Source of the DNA: an uncultured Candidatus Rokubacteria bacterium
GTDB taxonomy: Bacteria; Methylomirabilota; Methylomirabilia; Rokubacteriales; DASRDR01
Direction of reading: 5' to 3'
Assembly: GCA_963826115.1 (NCBI GenBank)
Contig: CAWGVS010000006.1
Span: 800,001 to 864,000 of the forward strand
DNA: 64,000 nucleotides
The notes under the pieces were generated by a model. That model was not told where the DNA came from. It saw nothing but the letters and a program-made list of their open reading frames with translations, and did no database searches. Positions 50,256-56,729 of this stretch are shown here, one piece after another; the first letter of the stretch is position 1, and each line of letters starts with the position of its first letter. A program made the translations under genes and the position numbers.

Positions 50256-52226
50256 CTAGAGGCGGCGGGCGGCGCGGGTGCCCTCGAGGAGCGCGTCGTG
50301 GAGGAGCCGCGGCGCCAGCGCGTCGCCGACGAGCGCGAGCTCGGGCACCTTGCCCTTGAGCGCCGCGTGGAGGCCGTCGACGGCGCGCCCGCCATAGGCG
50401 AGGACGACCGTGTCGACGCCGTCGAGCGCGAGGGGACGGTCCGAGTACTCGTTCACCGCCAGCACCCGGAGCTTGCCTGGGCCGCCGGATTCGATGGCCC
50501 GGAGCGCCGTGTCGACGAGCATCGTCACGTCGCGCTGGTAGAGCCGCTCGTAGAGCGGCTCCTTCGTCGAGCCTTCCGTGTTGTCGCACACGGTGTGGTA
50601 CTGGGTGACGATCGTGACCGCGCGGCCCTGGACCGCGAGGAAGTCGGCGGCGAGGCCGGCCTGGACGCGCCCCGTGCCGTCGACGACGACGACCCGTGGG
50701 CCGGCGACGGTCGCGCCGGACAGGATGTCCTCGACGGTCACGACCCCGGGCAGGTCGGCGCCGGGAACCACGGGCCGGCGCGGCACCGCGCCGGTCGCGA
50801 CGACGACCGCGTCAGGCCGGTCGGCGAGGACGCGCTCCGCGGTCGCCTCCGTCTCGAGCCGCACGGCCGCGCTCGTCATCCGGAGCTGGCGCACGAGCCA
50901 CTCCACCGACTGGCCGTAGCCCGGCCGGAGCGGCGCCCGCGCGGCGACCAGCACCTGGCCGCCGAGGGCGCCGGACCGCTCGTAGAGGATCACCTCGTGA
51001 CCCCGGAGCGCGGCGACGCGCGCCGCCTCCAGCCCGGCCGGTCCGCCGCCGACCACGACCACGCGCCGGGGCGTCACGGCGGGGACGAGCTCCGCGAGCT
51101 CGGCCTCGCGGCCGGTCACCGGATTCTGCGAGCACGAGAGCGTGAGCCCGCGGCTCGACCGGCCGAGGCAGCCCTCCTGCATGCCGACGCAGAAGCGGAC
51201 GTCGTCGAGCCGGCCGTCGGCGGCCTTCCGCGGCATCCAGGGATCGGCCATCAGGGCGCGGGTCATCGCGACCAGGTCGCAGGCCCCCTCGGCGAGGAGC
51301 CGCTCGGCGTGGCGCGGGTCGGTCACGCGCCCCGCGTAGATCACGGCCGCCCGCACCTCCTTCTTGATGCGCGCCGCGAAGGAGGCGTAGAGCCCGGGCG
51401 CCGTGTCGGCGAAGGGCATCAGCTTCTGGTGGTAGCGCGGCGTCTCGCCGGTCGAGCCGGAGACCGTGAAGTAGTCGAGCTGGTCGAGACTGTCGAGCGC
51501 GCGGACGATCTCGACGACGTCCTCGAGGTGGAGGCCGTCGGGGATCAGCTCGTCGCCGCTGACGCGCAGACCGAGGATGAAGTCGCGCCCCACGGCGGCC
51601 CGGATCGCGCCGATGACCTCGACCGAGAACCGGAGCCGGTTCTCGAAGCTCCCGCCGTACTCGTCGGTGCGCCGGTTCACCGACGGCACCCAGAACTGGT
51701 CGATCAGGTGGCGGGCGAACGCGCAGAGATCGGCCCCGTCGAACCCCGCGCGCTGGAGGCGCCGCGCCGCGGCGGCGTACGCGGCCACGATCTCGGCGAT
51801 CTCGCTCCGGTCGAGCGCGTGGGGGATCTCGCGGTTCTCGGTCTCGGGGACGTCGGACGCCGACACGAGCGGCCGCTCGCCGGGCGCCGAGAACCCGCGG
51901 CGCCCGCGGTGCGTGATCTGGGACATCACGTGGGCGCCCTCGCCGTGGATCGCGCGCGCGAAGGTCTCGAAGGTCGGGAGGGAGGAGTCGTCCCAGTTCT
52001 TGATGCCGTTCCAGTCGAGGACGGGACTCGACGGGTGGACGCTCGCGCTCCCGAAGCACTGGATCAGGCCCGCGCCGCCCCGCGCCTTCTCCTGATGGTA
52101 GCGGGTGTAGCGCTCGGTGATGTAACCGTCCTTCCCGAACCGCGTCGCGTGGGGCGTGCTGACGATCCGGTTCCGGAGGGTGACGTGGCCGAGCCGGAAA
52201 GGCGTGAACAGGCGCTCGAAGGTCAT
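50256..52226 (-). CDS. NADH:flavin oxidoreductase (OYE + Fe-S + FAD; DgcA/2,4-dienoyl-CoA reductase-like)
   Basis: LRNRIV, KARGG, AGFDG, NRRTDEYGGSFENR, CVGMQEGC...CSQNP, GGGPAG. Confidence 0.9.
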   Translation of the reverse strand: MTFERLFTPFRLGHVTLRNRIVSTPHATRFGKDGYITERYTRYHQEKARGGAGLIQCFGSASVHPSSPVLDWNGIKNWDDSSLPTFETFARAIHGEGAHVMSQITHRGRRGFSAPGERPLVSASDVPETENREIPHALDRSEIAEIVAAYAAAARRLQRAGFDGADLCAFARHLIDQFWVPSVNRRTDEYGGSFENRLRFSVEVIGAIRAAVGRDFILGLRVSGDELIPDGLHLEDVVEIVRALDSLDQLDYFTVSGSTGETPRYHQKLMPFADTAPGLYASFAARIKKEVRAAVIYAGRVTDPRHAERLLAEGACDLVAMTRALMADPWMPRKAADGRLDDVRFCVGMQEGCLGRSSRGLTLSCSQNPVTGREAELAELVPAVTPRRVVVVGGGPAGLEAARVAALRGHEVILYERSGALGGQVLVAARAPLRPGYGQSVEWLVRQLRMTSAAVRLETEATAERVLADRPDAVVVATGAVPRRPVVPGADLPGVVTVEDILSGATVAGPRVVVVDGTGRVQAGLAADFLAVQGRAVTIVTQYHTVCDNTEGSTKEPLYERLYQRDVTMLVDTALRAIESGGPGKLRVLAVNEYSDRPLALDGVDTVVLAYGGRAVDGLHAALKGKVPELALVGDALAPRLLHDALLEGTRAARRL

Positions 52227-52293
52227 GGGATGCCTCGTGGCCCTGGAGCATACCAGGAACCGCGGCCCGTGAGGCGCGGCGGGCCGGCCGTGC

Positions 52294-53130
52294 TCAGCGC
52301 GGCGCGCAGGGCGGGACGCAGCGCGCGCCCCGGGCGTCGACCAGCACGACGTCCACCGGGCCCCCGACGTGGCGGTCGGCGTCCCGGTAGAGCCGCTCGT
52401 CCTCGCCGATGCCGGCCTCGATCACGCGGCGGACATGTTCCGCGAGCTTCGCAGGCTCCTGGACGCCTGCCGCGTACATCGCGCTCGCGCGCGCGTACGG
52501 GCTCGCCGCGAAGAAGGCGTCGAGGGCGCGGGGCCACGCCACGGCGCCGCGTGGCGGCGCCGCCAGCCGCGCGGTCCACCGGTCCTCGATGTCGAGAGAG
52601 CCGAGCGTGGCCCGGCCTCCCGCCACGTAGGCGACGAGCAGCGTGAGCCGCGCCACCCTCAGGCGGATCCGGGCCGCGGCGTCGGCGGGATCCCTCGCGA
52701 GCGCTCGCCTCGCCGGCACCCGGACGGCCTGGAGCCGCTCCTGGAGGTCCGGACGCAGACGCTCGACGATCGCGTCGAAGCTCAGGCGCGACGCGTCGAG
52801 GGGGGCGATCAGCCGGCGGACGTGCTCCAGGGTGTCCTGCTCGGGGCCGAGCGAGGCGATGCCCGCGACGGCGACCGCGAGCGGCAGGGAGTCGTGCACG
52901 GCGATCTTCGGCCGGCGGCCCTGGCGCTCGGCGAGCGGGTCGTCGACCTTCGGCAGGGCGTTGATCCAGAGGCGGTCCGCACCCAGGACGACGAAGCTGG
53001 TCCGCGGCACGCCCATGATGATCGTGCCCGTCCGCACTGGCGGCTCGGGCCACAGGCACACGTGGTGGACGCCGACGAGCGCCAGGATGGCGAGCCCGGC
53101 CACGATCGCGCCGCGCATCATGTGGATCAT
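52294..53130 (-). CDS. Signal/anchor-bearing hypothetical protein with proteasome-beta-like Ntn-hydrolase signature
   Basis: Hydrophobic N-terminus, then RTG-TIIMGVPRTSFVVLGADR...KI...AVAG and C-terminal VGGPVDVVLVDARG. Confidence 0.6.
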   Translation of the reverse strand: MIHMMRGAIVAGLAILALVGVHHVCLWPEPPVRTGTIIMGVPRTSFVVLGADRLWINALPKVDDPLAERQGRRPKIAVHDSLPLAVAVAGIASLGPEQDTLEHVRRLIAPLDASRLSFDAIVERLRPDLQERLQAVRVPARRALARDPADAAARIRLRVARLTLLVAYVAGGRATLGSLDIEDRWTARLAAPPRGAVAWPRALDAFFAASPYARASAMYAAGVQEPAKLAEHVRRVIEAGIGEDERLYRDADRHVGGPVDVVLVDARGARCVPPCAPR

Positions 53131-53291
53131 TCGGTGCAAGAGCGCTGCCTCGCGGGTGGGCCTGACAGCCGCCAATGGACCGGGCCCGCCGGTCCGGTCC
53201 GGACGACAGGCCGTCGCCCCCCTGACGGCCTGTCCCCGCCGCGACGCTGAAGGCTCGCCGCCCGGCGCGGGACATTCGCTATGCTCGGAGC

Positions 53292-54608
53292 ATGGGCCCG
53301 GCGAAGGCGGAGCGCGCGGTCCTCCAGGTGGCGGGCCGCGAGGTCACGATCACCAACCCGGGGAAGGTCTACTTCCCCGAGGCAGGGATCACCAAGCTCG
53401 ACGTCGCGCAGTACTACGTCGCCGTGGCCGACGGCGCCCTCCGTGGCGCGGGCGGCCGGCCGAACGTGCTGGTCCGCTACGCCGACGGCATCCACGGCGA
53501 GTTCTTCTACCAGAAGCGGGCGCCGCGCGAGCGCCCGGACTGGGTGGAGGGCGTCGAGCTCCGCTTCCCGTCCGGCGGCGTCGCCGAGGAGGTCGTGCCC
53601 CGCGACGCCGCCACGCTCGCCTGGATGGCGAACCTCGGCTGCCTCGAGCTTCACCCGCATCCGGTGCGCGCGGAGGACCTCGAGCATCCGGACGAGCTCC
53701 GGATCGACCTGGATCCGGTCCCGGGCGTCGAGTGGACACAGATCGTCGCCGTCGCGCGTGTCGCGCGCGAGGCGCTGGCCGACTTCGGCCTGGTGGGGTG
53801 GCCGAAGACGTCGGGCTCGCGCGGCATCCACGTCAACGTGCGGATCCACCCCCGCTGGGGTTTCGGGGAGGTGCGGCGCGCGGCGCTCGCGTTCGCGCGC
53901 GAGGTCGAGCGCCGGGCGCCGACGCTCGCCACCAGCAAGTGGTGGAAGGAGGAGCGCCACGGGGTCTTCCTCGACTACAACCAGAACGCGAAGGACCGCA
54001 CGGTCTGCAGCGCCTACTCGGTGCGCCCGAAGCCGGACGCGCGCGTCTCGGCCCCCGTGACGTGGGAGGAGCTCGAGGCGTGCGACCCGGGCGACTTCAC
54101 GCTCCGCACGATGCCGGCGCGGTTCGCCGCGATCGGGGACCGGCACGCCACGATCGACGACCACGCGCGCTCGCTCGAGGCGCTGCTGGAGCTCTCCACC
54201 GCGCACGAGCGGGACGGGCTTGGCGACGCGCCGTGGCCGCCCCACTACCGGAAGCAGCCGGGGGAGCCGGAGCGAGTCGCGCCGTCCAAGCGGAAGAGCG
54301 GCGCGAGCGCCGGCGGCCGCCGCGCGTCGACGAAGCCCCTCGTCGAGATCGGGCGCGCGGACCGGAAGGAGGACGCGCTCGCGGGGCTCGAGCGCTGGAA
54401 GGCGCGCCACCCGGAGGTCGTCACGCACCTCCAGCCCGCGGACGTCCTGGTCGACTCGATGCGCGGCCGGTCGACGACGTGGACCCGCATCCGCGTGAAT
54501 CTCGAGCACGTGCCCGAGGCGCTCCGGCCGGCGCAGGAGCCCCTCGATCCCGACGGAGGACCGTCGTGGGCGCGGGCGGCGGGCCGTCCGGATCCGCCCG
54601 AGCGCTGA
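53292..54608 (+). CDS. Stand-alone LigD-type primase-polymerase (Prim-PolC-like)
   Basis: TNPGKVYFP, RYADG, FFYQKR, DELRIDLDP, KTSGSRGIH, WWKEER, FLDYNQN, AYSVR. Confidence 0.9.
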   Translation: MGPAKAERAVLQVAGREVTITNPGKVYFPEAGITKLDVAQYYVAVADGALRGAGGRPNVLVRYADGIHGEFFYQKRAPRERPDWVEGVELRFPSGGVAEEVVPRDAATLAWMANLGCLELHPHPVRAEDLEHPDELRIDLDPVPGVEWTQIVAVARVAREALADFGLVGWPKTSGSRGIHVNVRIHPRWGFGEVRRAALAFAREVERRAPTLATSKWWKEERHGVFLDYNQNAKDRTVCSAYSVRPKPDARVSAPVTWEELEACDPGDFTLRTMPARFAAIGDRHATIDDHARSLEALLELSTAHERDGLGDAPWPPHYRKQPGEPERVAPSKRKSGASAGGRRASTKPLVEIGRADRKEDALAGLERWKARHPEVVTHLQPADVLVDSMRGRSTTWTRIRVNLEHVPEALRPAQEPLDPDGGPSWARAAGRPDPPER

Positions 54609-54612
54609 GGGA

Positions 54613-55692
54613 CTATCCGGGCGCGGCGAGGCCGAAGATCCCGGCCAGCTCGGCGGGCGCCGTGACCTCGAGCTGGTCGTAGCGACACGCGGCCGGCGGC
54701 TTGTCCGGGCGCCACCGCACGAACGTGGCGGCGTGGCGGAAGCGGTCGCCCTGCAGGTGGTCGTAGGCGACCTCGCAGACGCGCTCGATCCGGAGCGGCT
54801 CCCAGGAGAGATCCTTGCCCTGGTTCCACCGGCTCTGCGCACCGGGCATCCGCACCGCGTCCGCCTCGGCCGCACCGCCCCACTCGCGCCACGGGTGGCC
54901 GTCGAGCGCGTGCTCCCGGAAGGGCGCGAGCTCGTCCGCGAGCCGGCGCCGCGCGGCCGCGGTGAAGGACGACGTGAAGCCGACGTGGTGGAGCCCACCG
55001 GCCTCGTCGTAGAGCCCGAGGAGGAGGGAGCCGACCAGCTCACCCGGGCCGGTCTTGTGCCAGCGGAAGCCGCCGACCACGCAGTCGGCGGTGCGGGTGT
55101 GCTTGACCTTGACCATCGCGCGCTTGCCGGGCTGGTAGGTCGTGCTCTCGTGCTTGGCGATGACGCCGTCGAGGCCCGCGCCCTCGAAGCGGTGGAACCA
55201 GTCCCGGGCGACCGCGCGGTCCCGCGAGCACGGGGTGAGGTGGATCGGGCCGCCGGCGTGCGCGAGGGCTCGCTCCAGCCGGGCGCGGCGCTCGGTCTGG
55301 GGTCGTCCACGGAGGTCCTCGTCGCCCTCCGCCAGGAGGTCGAAGGCGACGAACGACGACGGCGTCTCGGCCGCGAGCTTCGCCACGCGCGACGCGGCGG
55401 GGTGCAGGCGCATCTGGAGGGCGTCGAAGTCGAGGCCCTTCGCGGTGGCGATCACGATCTCGCCGTCGACGACGCACCGCGGCGGCAAGACCGCGCGGAG
55501 CGGGGCGGCCAGCTCGGGGAAGTACCGATCGAGCGGCTTCAGGTCCCGGCTCTGGAGGTAGACGCGGTCGCCGTCGCGGAACACGAGCGCGCGGAACCCG
55601 TCCCACTTCGGCTCGAAGAGCCACCCCTCGCCGTCCGGCAGCTCGTGTGCGAGCTTCGCCAGCATCGGCTCGACGGGCGGCTCGAGGATCAC
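54613..55692 (-). CDS. ligC: ATP-dependent DNA ligase, LigC type
   Basis: [65 protein letters not shown]. Confidence 0.85.
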
Positions 55693-56564
55693 CGGGGGCG
55701 CCGTGCGGCGATGCGCCCCTCGGCCGAGGCCCAGCCCGCGTCGAAGTGGAGACCCCGCTCGTCCAGGTCGATCACGAGCGGCGTGTGATCGGACGGCGTG
55801 GGCTTGCCCTTGCGCGTCTCGCGGTCGATCTCCGTCCAGACGACGCGGGCGGCGACCGGGCGCGACACGAGGAGGTGGTCGATGCGCATCCCGTAGTTCT
55901 TGTGGAAGTTGCCGGCCCGGTAGTCCCACCACGTGTAGCGCTCGGGCTCCGGGTGCTGCTGGCGGTAGATGTCGACGAAGCCCCACTCGAGGAGGCGCGC
56001 GAAGGCCTTCCGCTCCGGCTCCGAGACGTGCGTGCCCCCGTGGCACGCCGCGGGGTCCCAGACGTCGATGTCCGCCGGCGCCACGTTCAGGTCCCCGCCG
56101 AGGACCACCGGGTCGCCCGGCTTCGCGGCCGACTCGAGCCAGCGCGAGAGACGATCGAACCACACGAGCTTCGCCTGGTAGAAGACCGAGTCGACGGTCC
56201 GGCCGTTCGGCGCGTAGACGCTGACGACGCGGATGCCGCCGCACGACGCGGCGATCATCCGCGCCTCGGCGAGGGGCTCGTCGTCCCCCTCGTCCCCGGT
56301 CTTCGCCGGCCGGAGGGGCTCGCCGAAGTTCGTCACGACGTCCGCGATGCCGACGCGGCTCGCGATCGCCACGCCGTTCCACCGCCCCTCGCCGTGGTGC
56401 GCCAGCTCGTAGCCGGCGTCCTGGAACACGTCGGCGGGGACGTCGCCGTCCGCGAGCTTCGTCTCCTGCATGAGGAGGACGTCCGGCCGGGCGCGGACGA
56501 GCCATCCGCTCACGCGCTCGAGACGGGCCTTCAGCGAGTTGACGTTCCAGGTCGCGATGCGCAT
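55689..56564 (-). CDS. xth: Exodeoxyribonuclease III
   Basis: ATWNVNS, QETK, NGVAI, YAPNG, GDLN, TWWDYR, RIDH, SDH. Confidence 0.93.
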
Positions 56565-56729
56565 GGGTCCAGGGTACCGCGGGTCAGGCGTCGGATTCGA
56601 CTCCCGACACCGGCACGGGCACGCCACACCTCCGTCGCCCCGCGGGTCCGACGACGTGGCGCCGAGGTCCGGATCGATCTATGTTGGGCGAGAGTGAGAG
56701 GGGGCCGCAGAGTCGAAGGAGGGAGACCC

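Follow-up and report, generated by a model that had tools for sequence, protein, structure and literature searches.

Introduction

The enzymes of the proteasome family (the 20S proteasome, HslV, Anbu, BPH and connectase) are viewed as machines of the cytoplasm. A survey by Fuchs, Alva and Lupas (2021) added 22 families of distant proteasome homologues, thereby tripling the number of known families (PMC8665760). In the accessible portion of this survey, propeptides are confined to the proteasome beta subunits and HslV, none of the 22 new families possesses one, signal peptides, periplasm, secretion and membranes are not mentioned, and no exported members are reported. Here we analyse the gene P0001 (positions 52294..53130, minus strand; 278 residues), located in a window of 64,000 nucleotides, i.e. 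the whole stretch of DNA under study, from the contig CAWGVS010000006.1 of an uncultured Candidatus Rokubacteria bacterium. With a probability of about 0.6, its product represents the precursor of an exported proteasome-beta-like N-terminal nucleophile (Ntn) hydrolase from a family lacking a Pfam or NCBIfam model, for which a scheme of maturation and an enzyme mechanism are proposed below.

An earlier reading of the DNA letters (the sequence-only reading) suggested an exported or membrane-anchored, autoprocessing threonine hydrolase or transpeptidase at this place. Its interpretation is supported by our analysis, and each string and coordinate that it cited is present in the gene. The hydrophobic segment GAIVAGLAILALVGV corresponds to residues 7-21 (numbering is counted from ATG 53130), VRTG/TIIMGVPRTSFVVLGADR to residues 32-53 with the Thr36 codon ACG at 53023-53025, and the C-terminal string VGGPVDVVLVDARG to residues 255-268. 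Counting from this Thr, T1, G5, D17 and R18 are T36, G40, D52 and R53, K40-I41 is K75-I76, and A54-G55 is A89-G90, while LLVAYV (residues 164-169) lies inside the strand 162-170 predicted in the AlphaFold2 model.

Fold and position of the predicted nucleophile

The AlphaFold2 model of P0001, based on the alignment of close relatives (A1), has a mean predicted local distance difference test score of 86.5 and a predicted template-modelling score of 0.83, with low confidence in the leader only. AlphaFold2, Foldseek and VIA-align delimit a mature proteasome-beta-like Ntn domain at residues 36-278 (52297..53025, minus strand), in which the secondary-structure elements follow the order S1-S4, two helices, S5-S8, two helices, S9-S10. 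The sequence-only reading would have been refuted by a predicted fold other than the alpha-beta-beta-alpha Ntn sandwich, and the predicted fold is this sandwich.

Foldseek gave at least 500 matches in PDB at E<=0.001; among the matches listed, all were proteasome subunits, the best being 8yix_M (E 9.1e-9), with target-normalised template-modelling scores of 0.47-0.67. In the VIA-align comparison, which covered 48,161 representative chains, the top position was occupied by the Trichomonas proteasome beta chain 8oix_L (Z 17.4, root-mean-square deviation 2.9 A, 181 aligned residues), with residues 36..276 of the model aligned to residues 1..191 of the chain. Other beta subunits gave Z 16.4-17.0, the designed Anbu 5loy 16.7, Mycobacterium tuberculosis PrcB 2jay 14.7, alpha subunits 11.8-14.2, HslV 1m4y 13.2, BPH 5ovs and 5ovu 12.7 and 11.6, connectase 6zw0 and 8jtu 11.4 and 9.9, and NAAA, acid ceramidase, penicillin and cephalosporin acylases and bile-salt hydrolases 8-11.6.

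In most of these comparisons the aligned range begins with model residue 36 set against residue 1 of the chain or its nucleophile residue, and the comparisons with Anbu, HslV, BPH and connectase, too, place residue 36 at residue 1. Because it aligns to residue 1 of the processed chains, Thr36 is, in the predicted structure, at the position of the N-terminal nucleophile. The motif pattern is not due to chance, since it is placed in a confident proteasome-beta fold with residue 36 at residue 1. Of the features defining the proteasome-like Ntn superfamily, P0001 has the fold, a Thr at the start of S1 and the equivalents of Asp17, Lys33 and Gly47, and for autocatalytic cleavage before Thr1 it has the candidate site.

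Prediction of a two-copy complex of residues 36-278 (A1) gave a score of 0.01 against a mark of 0.42, which speaks neither for nor against the formation of rings. In profile searches of PDB sequences, the top matches were designed tetratricopeptide repeats, which sum weak repeats over 38 residues and were rejected as artefacts; a dioxygenase was found at E 0.022.

Catalytic residues and their conservation

Conservation was analysed in two alignments, A1 including 81 close relatives and A2 including 67 sequences, mostly distant representatives, among them five full-length close members. The predicted nucleophile Thr36 (codon ACG, 53023..53025, minus strand, as for all codons below), which would become Thr1 after cleavage between Gly35 and Thr36, is kept in 79/81 sequences of A1 (two gaps) and in 57/67 of A2, where Ala (three sequences), Gly (one), Ser (one) or gaps (five) are found instead. 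Gly35 is present in 79/81 sequences of A1. Asp52 of the GADR motif (52975..52977), the equivalent of proteasome Asp17, is found in 81/81 and 64/67 sequences, Lys75 (52906..52908), the equivalent of Lys33, in 80/81 and 65/67, and Gly90 (52861..52863), the equivalent of the oxyanion-hole Gly47, also in 80/81 and 65/67. The conservation of the Thr/Asp/Lys triad in homologues, on which the sequence-only reading had likewise staked its validity, and that of the G/T junction are thus borne out.

In the wide alignment A2, Thr is preceded by Gly in 36/67 sequences, where it stands behind short or long leaders, by the initiator Met in 22, by Val in three (one of them a GTG start codon) and by His in one. 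The Met-Thr starts would expose Thr by methionine removal alone, as occurs for the N-terminal Thr of HslV, BPH and Anbu, and therefore they represent evidence for an N-terminal Thr which is independent of the fold.

For comparison with canonical beta subunits, 17 PrcB sequences from genomes of the same phylum were used, after two loci had been set aside, one because of an in-frame stop and one from the unpublished genome G029. The hhalign match between A2 and the PrcB alignment is weak (E 0.0031, 90 columns), yet its register is exact: G/T is paired with G/TT, GADR with AGDR (Asp52 falling on the PrcB GDR), K-I with K-I, and the A-x-A-G strand containing Gly90 with I-A-G-A-A-G. The distance from Thr36 to Lys75 is 39 residues against 32 in the proteasome, which confirms the suggested loop insertion of about seven residues, and in this loop the model has a short helix (residues 66-69). 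Other residues are family-specific and nearly invariant in A2: His79 (52894-52896; 64/67), Pro83 (52882-52884; 66/67), Pro200 (61/67) and, near the C-terminus, G256 (58/67), G257 (53/67) and Asp260 (58/67). The last three lie in D252-R-H-V-G-G-P-V-D260 (52351..52377), which by its motif appears to be the counterpart of D166-x-x-S169-G-G.

The canonical active-site support residues, which we take to be numbered Ser129, Asp166 and Ser169, were matched to P0001 by reading the motif and secondary structure rather than by the output of a tool. There is no GSG motif in P0001, as the sequence-only reading had remarked; A198-W199-P200 is located there instead, between the strand 196-198 and the helix 201-209. 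Val255 occupies the Ser169 position, and only the Asp166 position (residue 252) is kept, as D or N: D in 52 and N in 16 of the 81 sequences of A1, N in 35 and D in 10 of the 67 sequences of A2.

The loss of the Ser129 and Ser169 equivalents, together with the replacement of Thr by Ala, Gly or Ser in 3+1+1 of the 67 wide relatives, which indicates that nucleophile loss is tolerated, may be taken to mean that P0001, once exported, serves as a scaffold or binding protein which has retained the fold but lost catalysis, similar to the proteasome alpha subunits. We consider this very improbable: for each of Thr36, Gly35, Asp52, Lys75 and Gly90, no fewer than 79 of the 81 close relatives have the same residue, and for all except Gly35 so do 57-65 of the 67 wide ones, which is hard to explain without catalysis. 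In addition, it is this very Thr that the Met-Thr starts (22/67) expose.

The same absence of Ser129 and Ser169, combined with the family-invariant H79, P83, P200 and D260, suggests that the pocket chemistry is unlike that of the proteasome. One can suppose, therefore, that the exported Ntn enzyme is not a peptidase but a sequence-specific transpeptidase or ligase similar to connectase, or an amidase or acylase of small molecules similar to the periplasmic penicillin and AHL acylases. Residue 36 is aligned to the nucleophile in connectase 6zw0 (Z 11.4), NAAA, acid ceramidase and the penicillin and cephalosporin acylases, and the periplasm, to our knowledge, has no ATP-driven unfoldase which could feed a protease chamber. 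Nevertheless, this explanation is fairly unlikely, since proteasome beta subunits and Anbu (Z 16-17) score much higher than connectase (11.4) or the acylases (8-9), and the two-helix S3/S4 insertion of connectase, as presented in the available part of the 2021 survey (PMC8665760), is not seen in the P0001 model.

Leader, cysteine pair and probable export

Residues 1-21 (53068..53130, minus strand) form a signal-peptide-like segment composed of a short n-region with Arg6 and the 15-residue uncharged core GAIVAGLAILALVGV. It is followed by the spacer or propeptide HHVCLWPEPPVRTG (residues 22-35; 53026..53067, minus strand), which ends with R33-x-G35 before Thr36 (R33 is kept in 76/81 close relatives). 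The leaders were scored using a simple heuristic of our own (Kyte-Doolittle core, n-region charge, small-x-small site), and the counts refer to the 79 of 81 close relatives having at least 15 residues before Thr.

In the P0001 leader, the 10-residue Kyte-Doolittle maximum reaches 2.96. A 10-residue window with a mean of at least 2.0 is present in 78/79 relatives, net positive charge ahead of the core in 66/79, and one or more small-x-small sites beyond the core in 78/79. The uncharged stretch comprises 13-24 residues in 75/79, with a minimum of 9 and a maximum of 27. Between the last site and Thr, a distance of seven residues is the most frequent, if the trivial site at Thr itself is excepted, and the typical leader endings are ...AQA/EPxLRTG/T and ...LAG/AAAELRxG/T. 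The hydrophobic N-terminus, regarded by the sequence-only reading as a signal or anchor, therefore looks Sec-like across the family. Since the positive n-region, the core and the sites are kept despite the diverging leader sequence, the pattern corresponds to an N-in Sec signal, and the combination of this anatomy with a short propeptide suggests a two-step maturation. A lipoprotein signal was also considered and rejected by eye: a leader Cys occurs in some relatives (e.g., LLC/LVS) without a small residue at -1.

The pair C271-V-P-P-C275 (52306..52320, minus strand) is specific to the exported Rokubacterial clade: C271 and C275 are each found in 80/81 sequences of A1, and in 8/67 and 5/67 sequences of A2, respectively. 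A Cys271-Cys275 disulfide is possible and would suit oxidising surroundings; the window genome encodes a VKOR homologue, and no DsbB was found there. The same genome has five Omp85-family matches (best E 4e-64), because of which the host is a diderm and the periplasm is the likely destination of P0001. An enzyme of the proteasome type, normally cytoplasmic, here probably works outside the cytoplasm.

Alternatively, the leader may be nothing else than a long propeptide, with the protein residing in the cytoplasm or on the inner face of the membrane. All characterised members of the proteasome family are cytoplasmic according to the accessible text of PMC8665760, the leader is absent or short in 54 of the 62 wide relatives placed on the tree described below, and the leader of P0001 has no clear signal-peptidase site. 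This alternative is nevertheless improbable in view of the positive n-region, the uncharged stretch of 13-24 residues and the small-x-small sites seen in the great majority of close relatives, of the Cys pair confined to the signal-bearing clade, and of the signal carried also by the co-oriented companion protein considered below.

Reading frame and start codon

The GC content of the window is 73%, and long open reading frames (ORFs) are present in all six frames, including two which overlap P0001: an ORF of 350 residues (52223-53275, minus strand) and one of 293 residues (52369-53250, plus strand). Under such conditions one could regard P0001 (stop codon at 52294-52296) itself as a spurious ORF resembling the motifs by chance. 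The probability of this is practically nil: the coding pattern of GC by codon position (0.80/0.53/0.95 for positions 1/2/3, as in the neighbouring genes) is confined to the P0001 frame, and 91 protein relatives with 44-83% identity and a confident fold are available, so that the relatives, codon GC, AlphaFold2 model and VIA-align together refute it. Because of the coding pattern, the relatives and the fold, the P0001 ORF is a real gene; its leader (codons 1-35) is also coding, with a third-position GC of 0.97. The two overlapping ORFs are rich in Arg, Pro and Gly, and their GC by position (0.91/0.80/0.57 and 0.93/0.55/0.78, respectively) marks them as by-products of the high GC content, not genes.

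The start codon of P0001 is uncertain among ATG 53130, ATG 53121/53118, TTG 53139 and TTG 53175. The position of TTG 53139 is the start in 17/81 relatives, seven of them with Met (sequences read by eye).

Searches of Pfam-A and NCBIfam with P0001 gave zero matches at E<=10, and PHROGs and PADLOC searches with P0001, P0106 and P0110 gave nothing except one PHROG match at E 0.23. In a look-up of sequencing runs, no RNA run was listed for P0001; the best DNA run contained 0.26 of the sampled words, and the others contained small shares of them.

Relatives and family history

A word-indexed search revealed 91 proteins at E<=1e-3, most of the full-length ones being 56-83% identical to P0001. All are "hypothetical" or unnamed, and the only precomputed Pfam domain among them is one partial match of low coverage (PF11799). 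When 1.84 billion cluster representatives were searched exhaustively with phmmer, 95 proteins were obtained at E<=1e-3, 38 of them at E<=1e-10; most of the 95 are 210-250 residues long and show 24-40% identity. A cluster look-up of 10 relatives yielded no accession and no informative name, and no fused or longer forms were found among candidates of 488-2000 residues, which is weak evidence. In the ESM Atlas, the closest neighbours of the mature domain are unnamed clusters, which occur most often in Acidobacteriota and Pseudomonadota and have no Pfam family in common; this can serve as a lead only.

When one genome per GTDB species was searched, a close relative was found at eight loci in seven genomes; seven of the eight records bear the name Candidatus Methylomirabilota or Rokubacteria in their titles, the remaining one being an "uncultured bacterium". 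Among 201 sampled genomes of the phylum, six gave strong matches (E<=1e-74), all from the genus of the window (its own genome and 5/10 others), and two further genomes gave weak partial matches only. The close signal-bearing family is thus restricted, in the data searched, to one genus of Candidatus Rokubacteria/Methylomirabilota.

The target gene is present in a single copy in the window genome, which comprises 6.24 Mb in 12 contigs and is 99% complete. A search with PF00227 revealed three other loci in this genome, the target gene not being among them: a canonical adjacent PrcA/PrcB pair (G000:C6:247437-248722), about 600 kb from the target and with a PrcB leader ending in ...PTG/TT, and a third gene at G000:C5:942622-943137. 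Since PrcA and PrcB are separately present, the target gene is an accessory addition and not a replacement of the proteasome. PF00227 genes were found in 41/41 sampled genomes of the phylum (the count includes the unpublished G029), and the same pattern, a canonical alpha/beta pair plus a third PF00227 gene, was observed in most of them.

A quick maximum-likelihood tree was built for 62 mature domains, the truncated or frameshifted P0089, P0090, P0101, P0127 and P0161 being dropped. The eight signal-bearing sequences are divided between the Rokubacterial clade (support 100) and a second group, P0096/P0099/P0100 (support 88), both of which sit among leaderless and short-leader forms (54/62 in total). 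The distribution of leaders on this poorly resolved tree needs two changes, at least one of which is forced by well-supported branches. This position of the two groups is the reason why export looks derived within a family which appears to be otherwise cytoplasmic.

Several additional relatives were recorded. For the leaderless P0106, no match was found in metagenome contigs (scan with a single protein) or in plasmids and phages (tblastn). A 206-residue ORF, MTIAVAIR...FAADSK...TKVVH...MVAGHA (L047:1168-1788, minus strand; genome G079), from another Methylomirabilota family of the same class, matches the A2 profile at E 4.9e-5 in its N-terminal part only and looks like a very distant leaderless homologue. 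Two divergent close relatives (L060:3893-4801 and L057:3773-4819; 55-60% identity) occur in other contexts and without the 240-residue companion described below. The genes preceding one of them encode a peptide ATP-binding cassette (ABC) transporter binding protein, a permease and a response regulator, and a glucose-6-phosphate-dehydrogenase-like gene precedes the second.

Genomic neighbourhood and companion protein

In agreement with the sequence-only reading, no alpha subunit or ATPase gene adjoins the target, the flanks being represented by genes for a LigD primase-polymerase (53292-54608, plus strand, divergent from the target; PF21686, E 3e-86) and a 656-residue flavoprotein combining an old yellow enzyme (OYE)-type flavin mononucleotide oxidoreductase with a pyridine-nucleotide-disulfide oxidoreductase (50256-52226, minus strand; PF00724, E 3e-59). 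The flavoprotein gene begins 68 bp past the target stop on the same strand, and the two may be co-transcribed; no functional link between them is evident. The C-terminal part of an ATP-dependent DNA ligase (within 54613-55500, minus strand; PF01068/PF04679) and an exonuclease III-like gene (55689-56627, minus strand; PF03372) follow LigD, so that a cluster in the style of non-homologous end joining (53292-56627) adjoins the target gene. The order LigD/target/flavoprotein is common to the genus, which kinship alone may explain.

A gene for a companion protein of about 240 residues is located directly 3' of the target relatives in 7/10 distinct genomic loci and in 4/10 metagenome loci with at least 500 bp past the gene, i.e. 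in 11/20 overall; of the 21 metagenome loci fetched, the other 11 were too short or truncated for this count. An example is L002:6785-7507 (plus strand), and the gene was also found in L001, L003, L005-L008, L052, L058, L061 and L062. One of these, L006, contains a second copy of the target-companion pair in a genome lacking the LigD and flavoprotein genes. This genome is G164, whose two pairs lie at unrelated loci on separate contigs (L005 and L006), with targets 69% and 61% identical to P0001. In L006 and L007 the companion gene is split in two frames, possibly by a frameshift or an assembly error.

The N-terminus of the companion carries a signal-like RRxxLRLG segment. Its long alpha-hairpin is MexA/EmrA-like and matches the membrane-fusion protein MexA 1vf7 with Z 10.9 and a root-mean-square deviation of 0.9 A over 66 residues, a likeness which can be generic. 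The C-terminal domain has invariant H186-x4-D191 and H230-x-H232, which, presumably, resemble the motifs of LAS-type zinc peptidases; Foldseek gave only non-significant matches, to Hedgehog N-terminal domains and the VldE zinc domain (E 0.19-0.5). The companion is thus a possible LAS-type zinc peptidase. Its family is larger than that of the target (690 hits) and has no Pfam family. The companion may be viewed as a weak hint of a role of the target in the cell envelope.

Proposed maturation and its meaning

On the basis of these data, we suggest the following scheme for P0001. The hydrophobic N-terminus would direct the precursor via the Sec pathway to the periplasm of the diderm Rokubacterium, where the leader would be removed by signal peptidase I, if a site exists, or by the enzyme itself. 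An autocatalytic cut between Gly35 and Thr36, as in proteasome beta subunits, would then make Thr36 both nucleophile and general base, with Asp52, Lys75 and Gly90 acting presumably as Asp17, Lys33 and Gly47, for which homology and register are seen in the alignments; we infer both the self-cleavage and the catalytic activity from these residues. The mature 243-residue single chain would act on peptide or amide bonds of a substrate located outside the cytoplasm, by cleaving or possibly transferring them. The cell envelope is a weak lead to this substrate, given that the relatives are often encoded directly upstream of an exported alpha-hairpin/zinc-peptidase-like protein.

Several points weigh against this scheme. 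At the sequence level, the links to the proteasome are marginal: P0001 has no PF00227 match at E<=10 (a weak one is seen in 4/67 relatives, best E 0.031), the hhalign probability against PrcB is 10%, and proteasome chains appear in the PDB profile searches at E 0.19-1.8, though with the correct N-terminal position. The active site differs from that of canonical beta subunits, and because the Ser129 and Ser169 equivalents are absent, the activity may be altered. The export signal was scored by a home-made heuristic, not by SignalP, and the leader of P0001 has a weak signal-peptidase site only (LVG/VHH), because of which the protein may remain anchored in the membrane until self-cleavage frees the domain. 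Finally, the companion gene is missing from the window and was not found in the window genome (completeness 99%), and therefore it represents a frequent but not obligatory partner.

A bolder version of the scheme may be formulated, in which the clade would be a branch of the proteasome family working outside the cytoplasm, the first of its kind: a periplasmic Thr1 enzyme forming an ATP-independent self-compartmentalising ring or chamber, matured by Sec cleavage and subsequent autolysis of a conserved spacer of 7-8 residues, and processing envelope peptides or proteins together with the companion. We regard this version as distinctly unlikely and offer it as a speculation only.

If the proposed scheme is true, the catalytic scaffold of the proteasome has been put to use in the cell envelope, which has no ATP-dependent unfoldase. 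This poses the questions of what is cut or joined there, whether rings are still formed, and how signal peptidase and autolysis cooperate. Since the family is not in Pfam or NCBIfam, it is currently unannotated in soil metagenomes. Connectase provides a precedent for the use of odd family members as tools, and production would be easy for a member that is secreted, consists of one chain and activates itself.

Comparison with known systems

Among the described systems, the 20S proteasome beta subunits (PrcB and the eukaryotic beta5 type; PF00227), which we take to constitute MEROPS family T1, share with the target the alpha-beta-beta-alpha Ntn fold, the Gly/Thr site, the equivalents of Thr1, Asp17, Lys33 and Gly47 in register, and the D-x-x-x-G-G-x-V strand near the C-terminus. 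The target differs from them in its Sec-type signal, the absence of a match to the PF00227 hidden Markov model, A-W-P in place of Ser129, Val in place of Ser169, a loop between Asp17 and Lys33 extended by seven residues, a model without the C-terminal helix H5, and the lack of an adjoining alpha subunit or ATPase.

Anbu (5loy), HslV (1m4y) and BPH (5ovs/5ovu) have the same fold, the target residue 36 falling on their Thr1, and their Thr is exposed as in the wide relatives starting with Met-Thr; unlike the target, which has a signal and a conserved spacer, they are cytoplasmic. The known partners of these enzymes include HslU for HslV and, in the Anbu operon, the ATP-grasp, alpha-E and transglutaminase genes. 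None of the known partners of HslV, Anbu or BPH was seen beside the target gene.

Connectase is also proteasome-like without being a general protease, and the target residue 36 corresponds to its residue 1. It is archaeal and cytoplasmic, and in the available part of the 2021 survey it is described as lacking the first helix pair and having the two-helix S3/S4 insertion (PMC8665760), whereas the target model has long helices at residues 100-159 and passes from the strand at residues 76-78 directly to that at 84-90.

The 22 families of the same survey resemble the target in being distant, uncharacterised and below standard hidden Markov model thresholds with Thr1, Asp17, Lys33 and Gly47 kept, as far as its accessible text shows. 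The signal-bearing clade is not described in that text; the wider leaderless family may match one of the 22 clusters, the comparison being made by description only. A full-text literature search for exported proteasome homologues gave nothing relevant.

The periplasmic Ntn hydrolases (penicillin G/V acylases, cephalosporin acylase and PvdQ) are similar to the target in being exported, self-cleaved and provided with an N-terminal nucleophile, on which the target residue 36 falls; gamma-glutamyltranspeptidase is another exported, self-processing Ntn hydrolase. The likeness of the acylase fold (Z 8-9.6) is below that of proteasome beta subunits (17). These acylases are larger, mostly composed of two chains produced by excision of an internal spacer, and many of them use a Ser or Cys nucleophile, whereas the target would consist of one proteasome-type chain of 243 residues.

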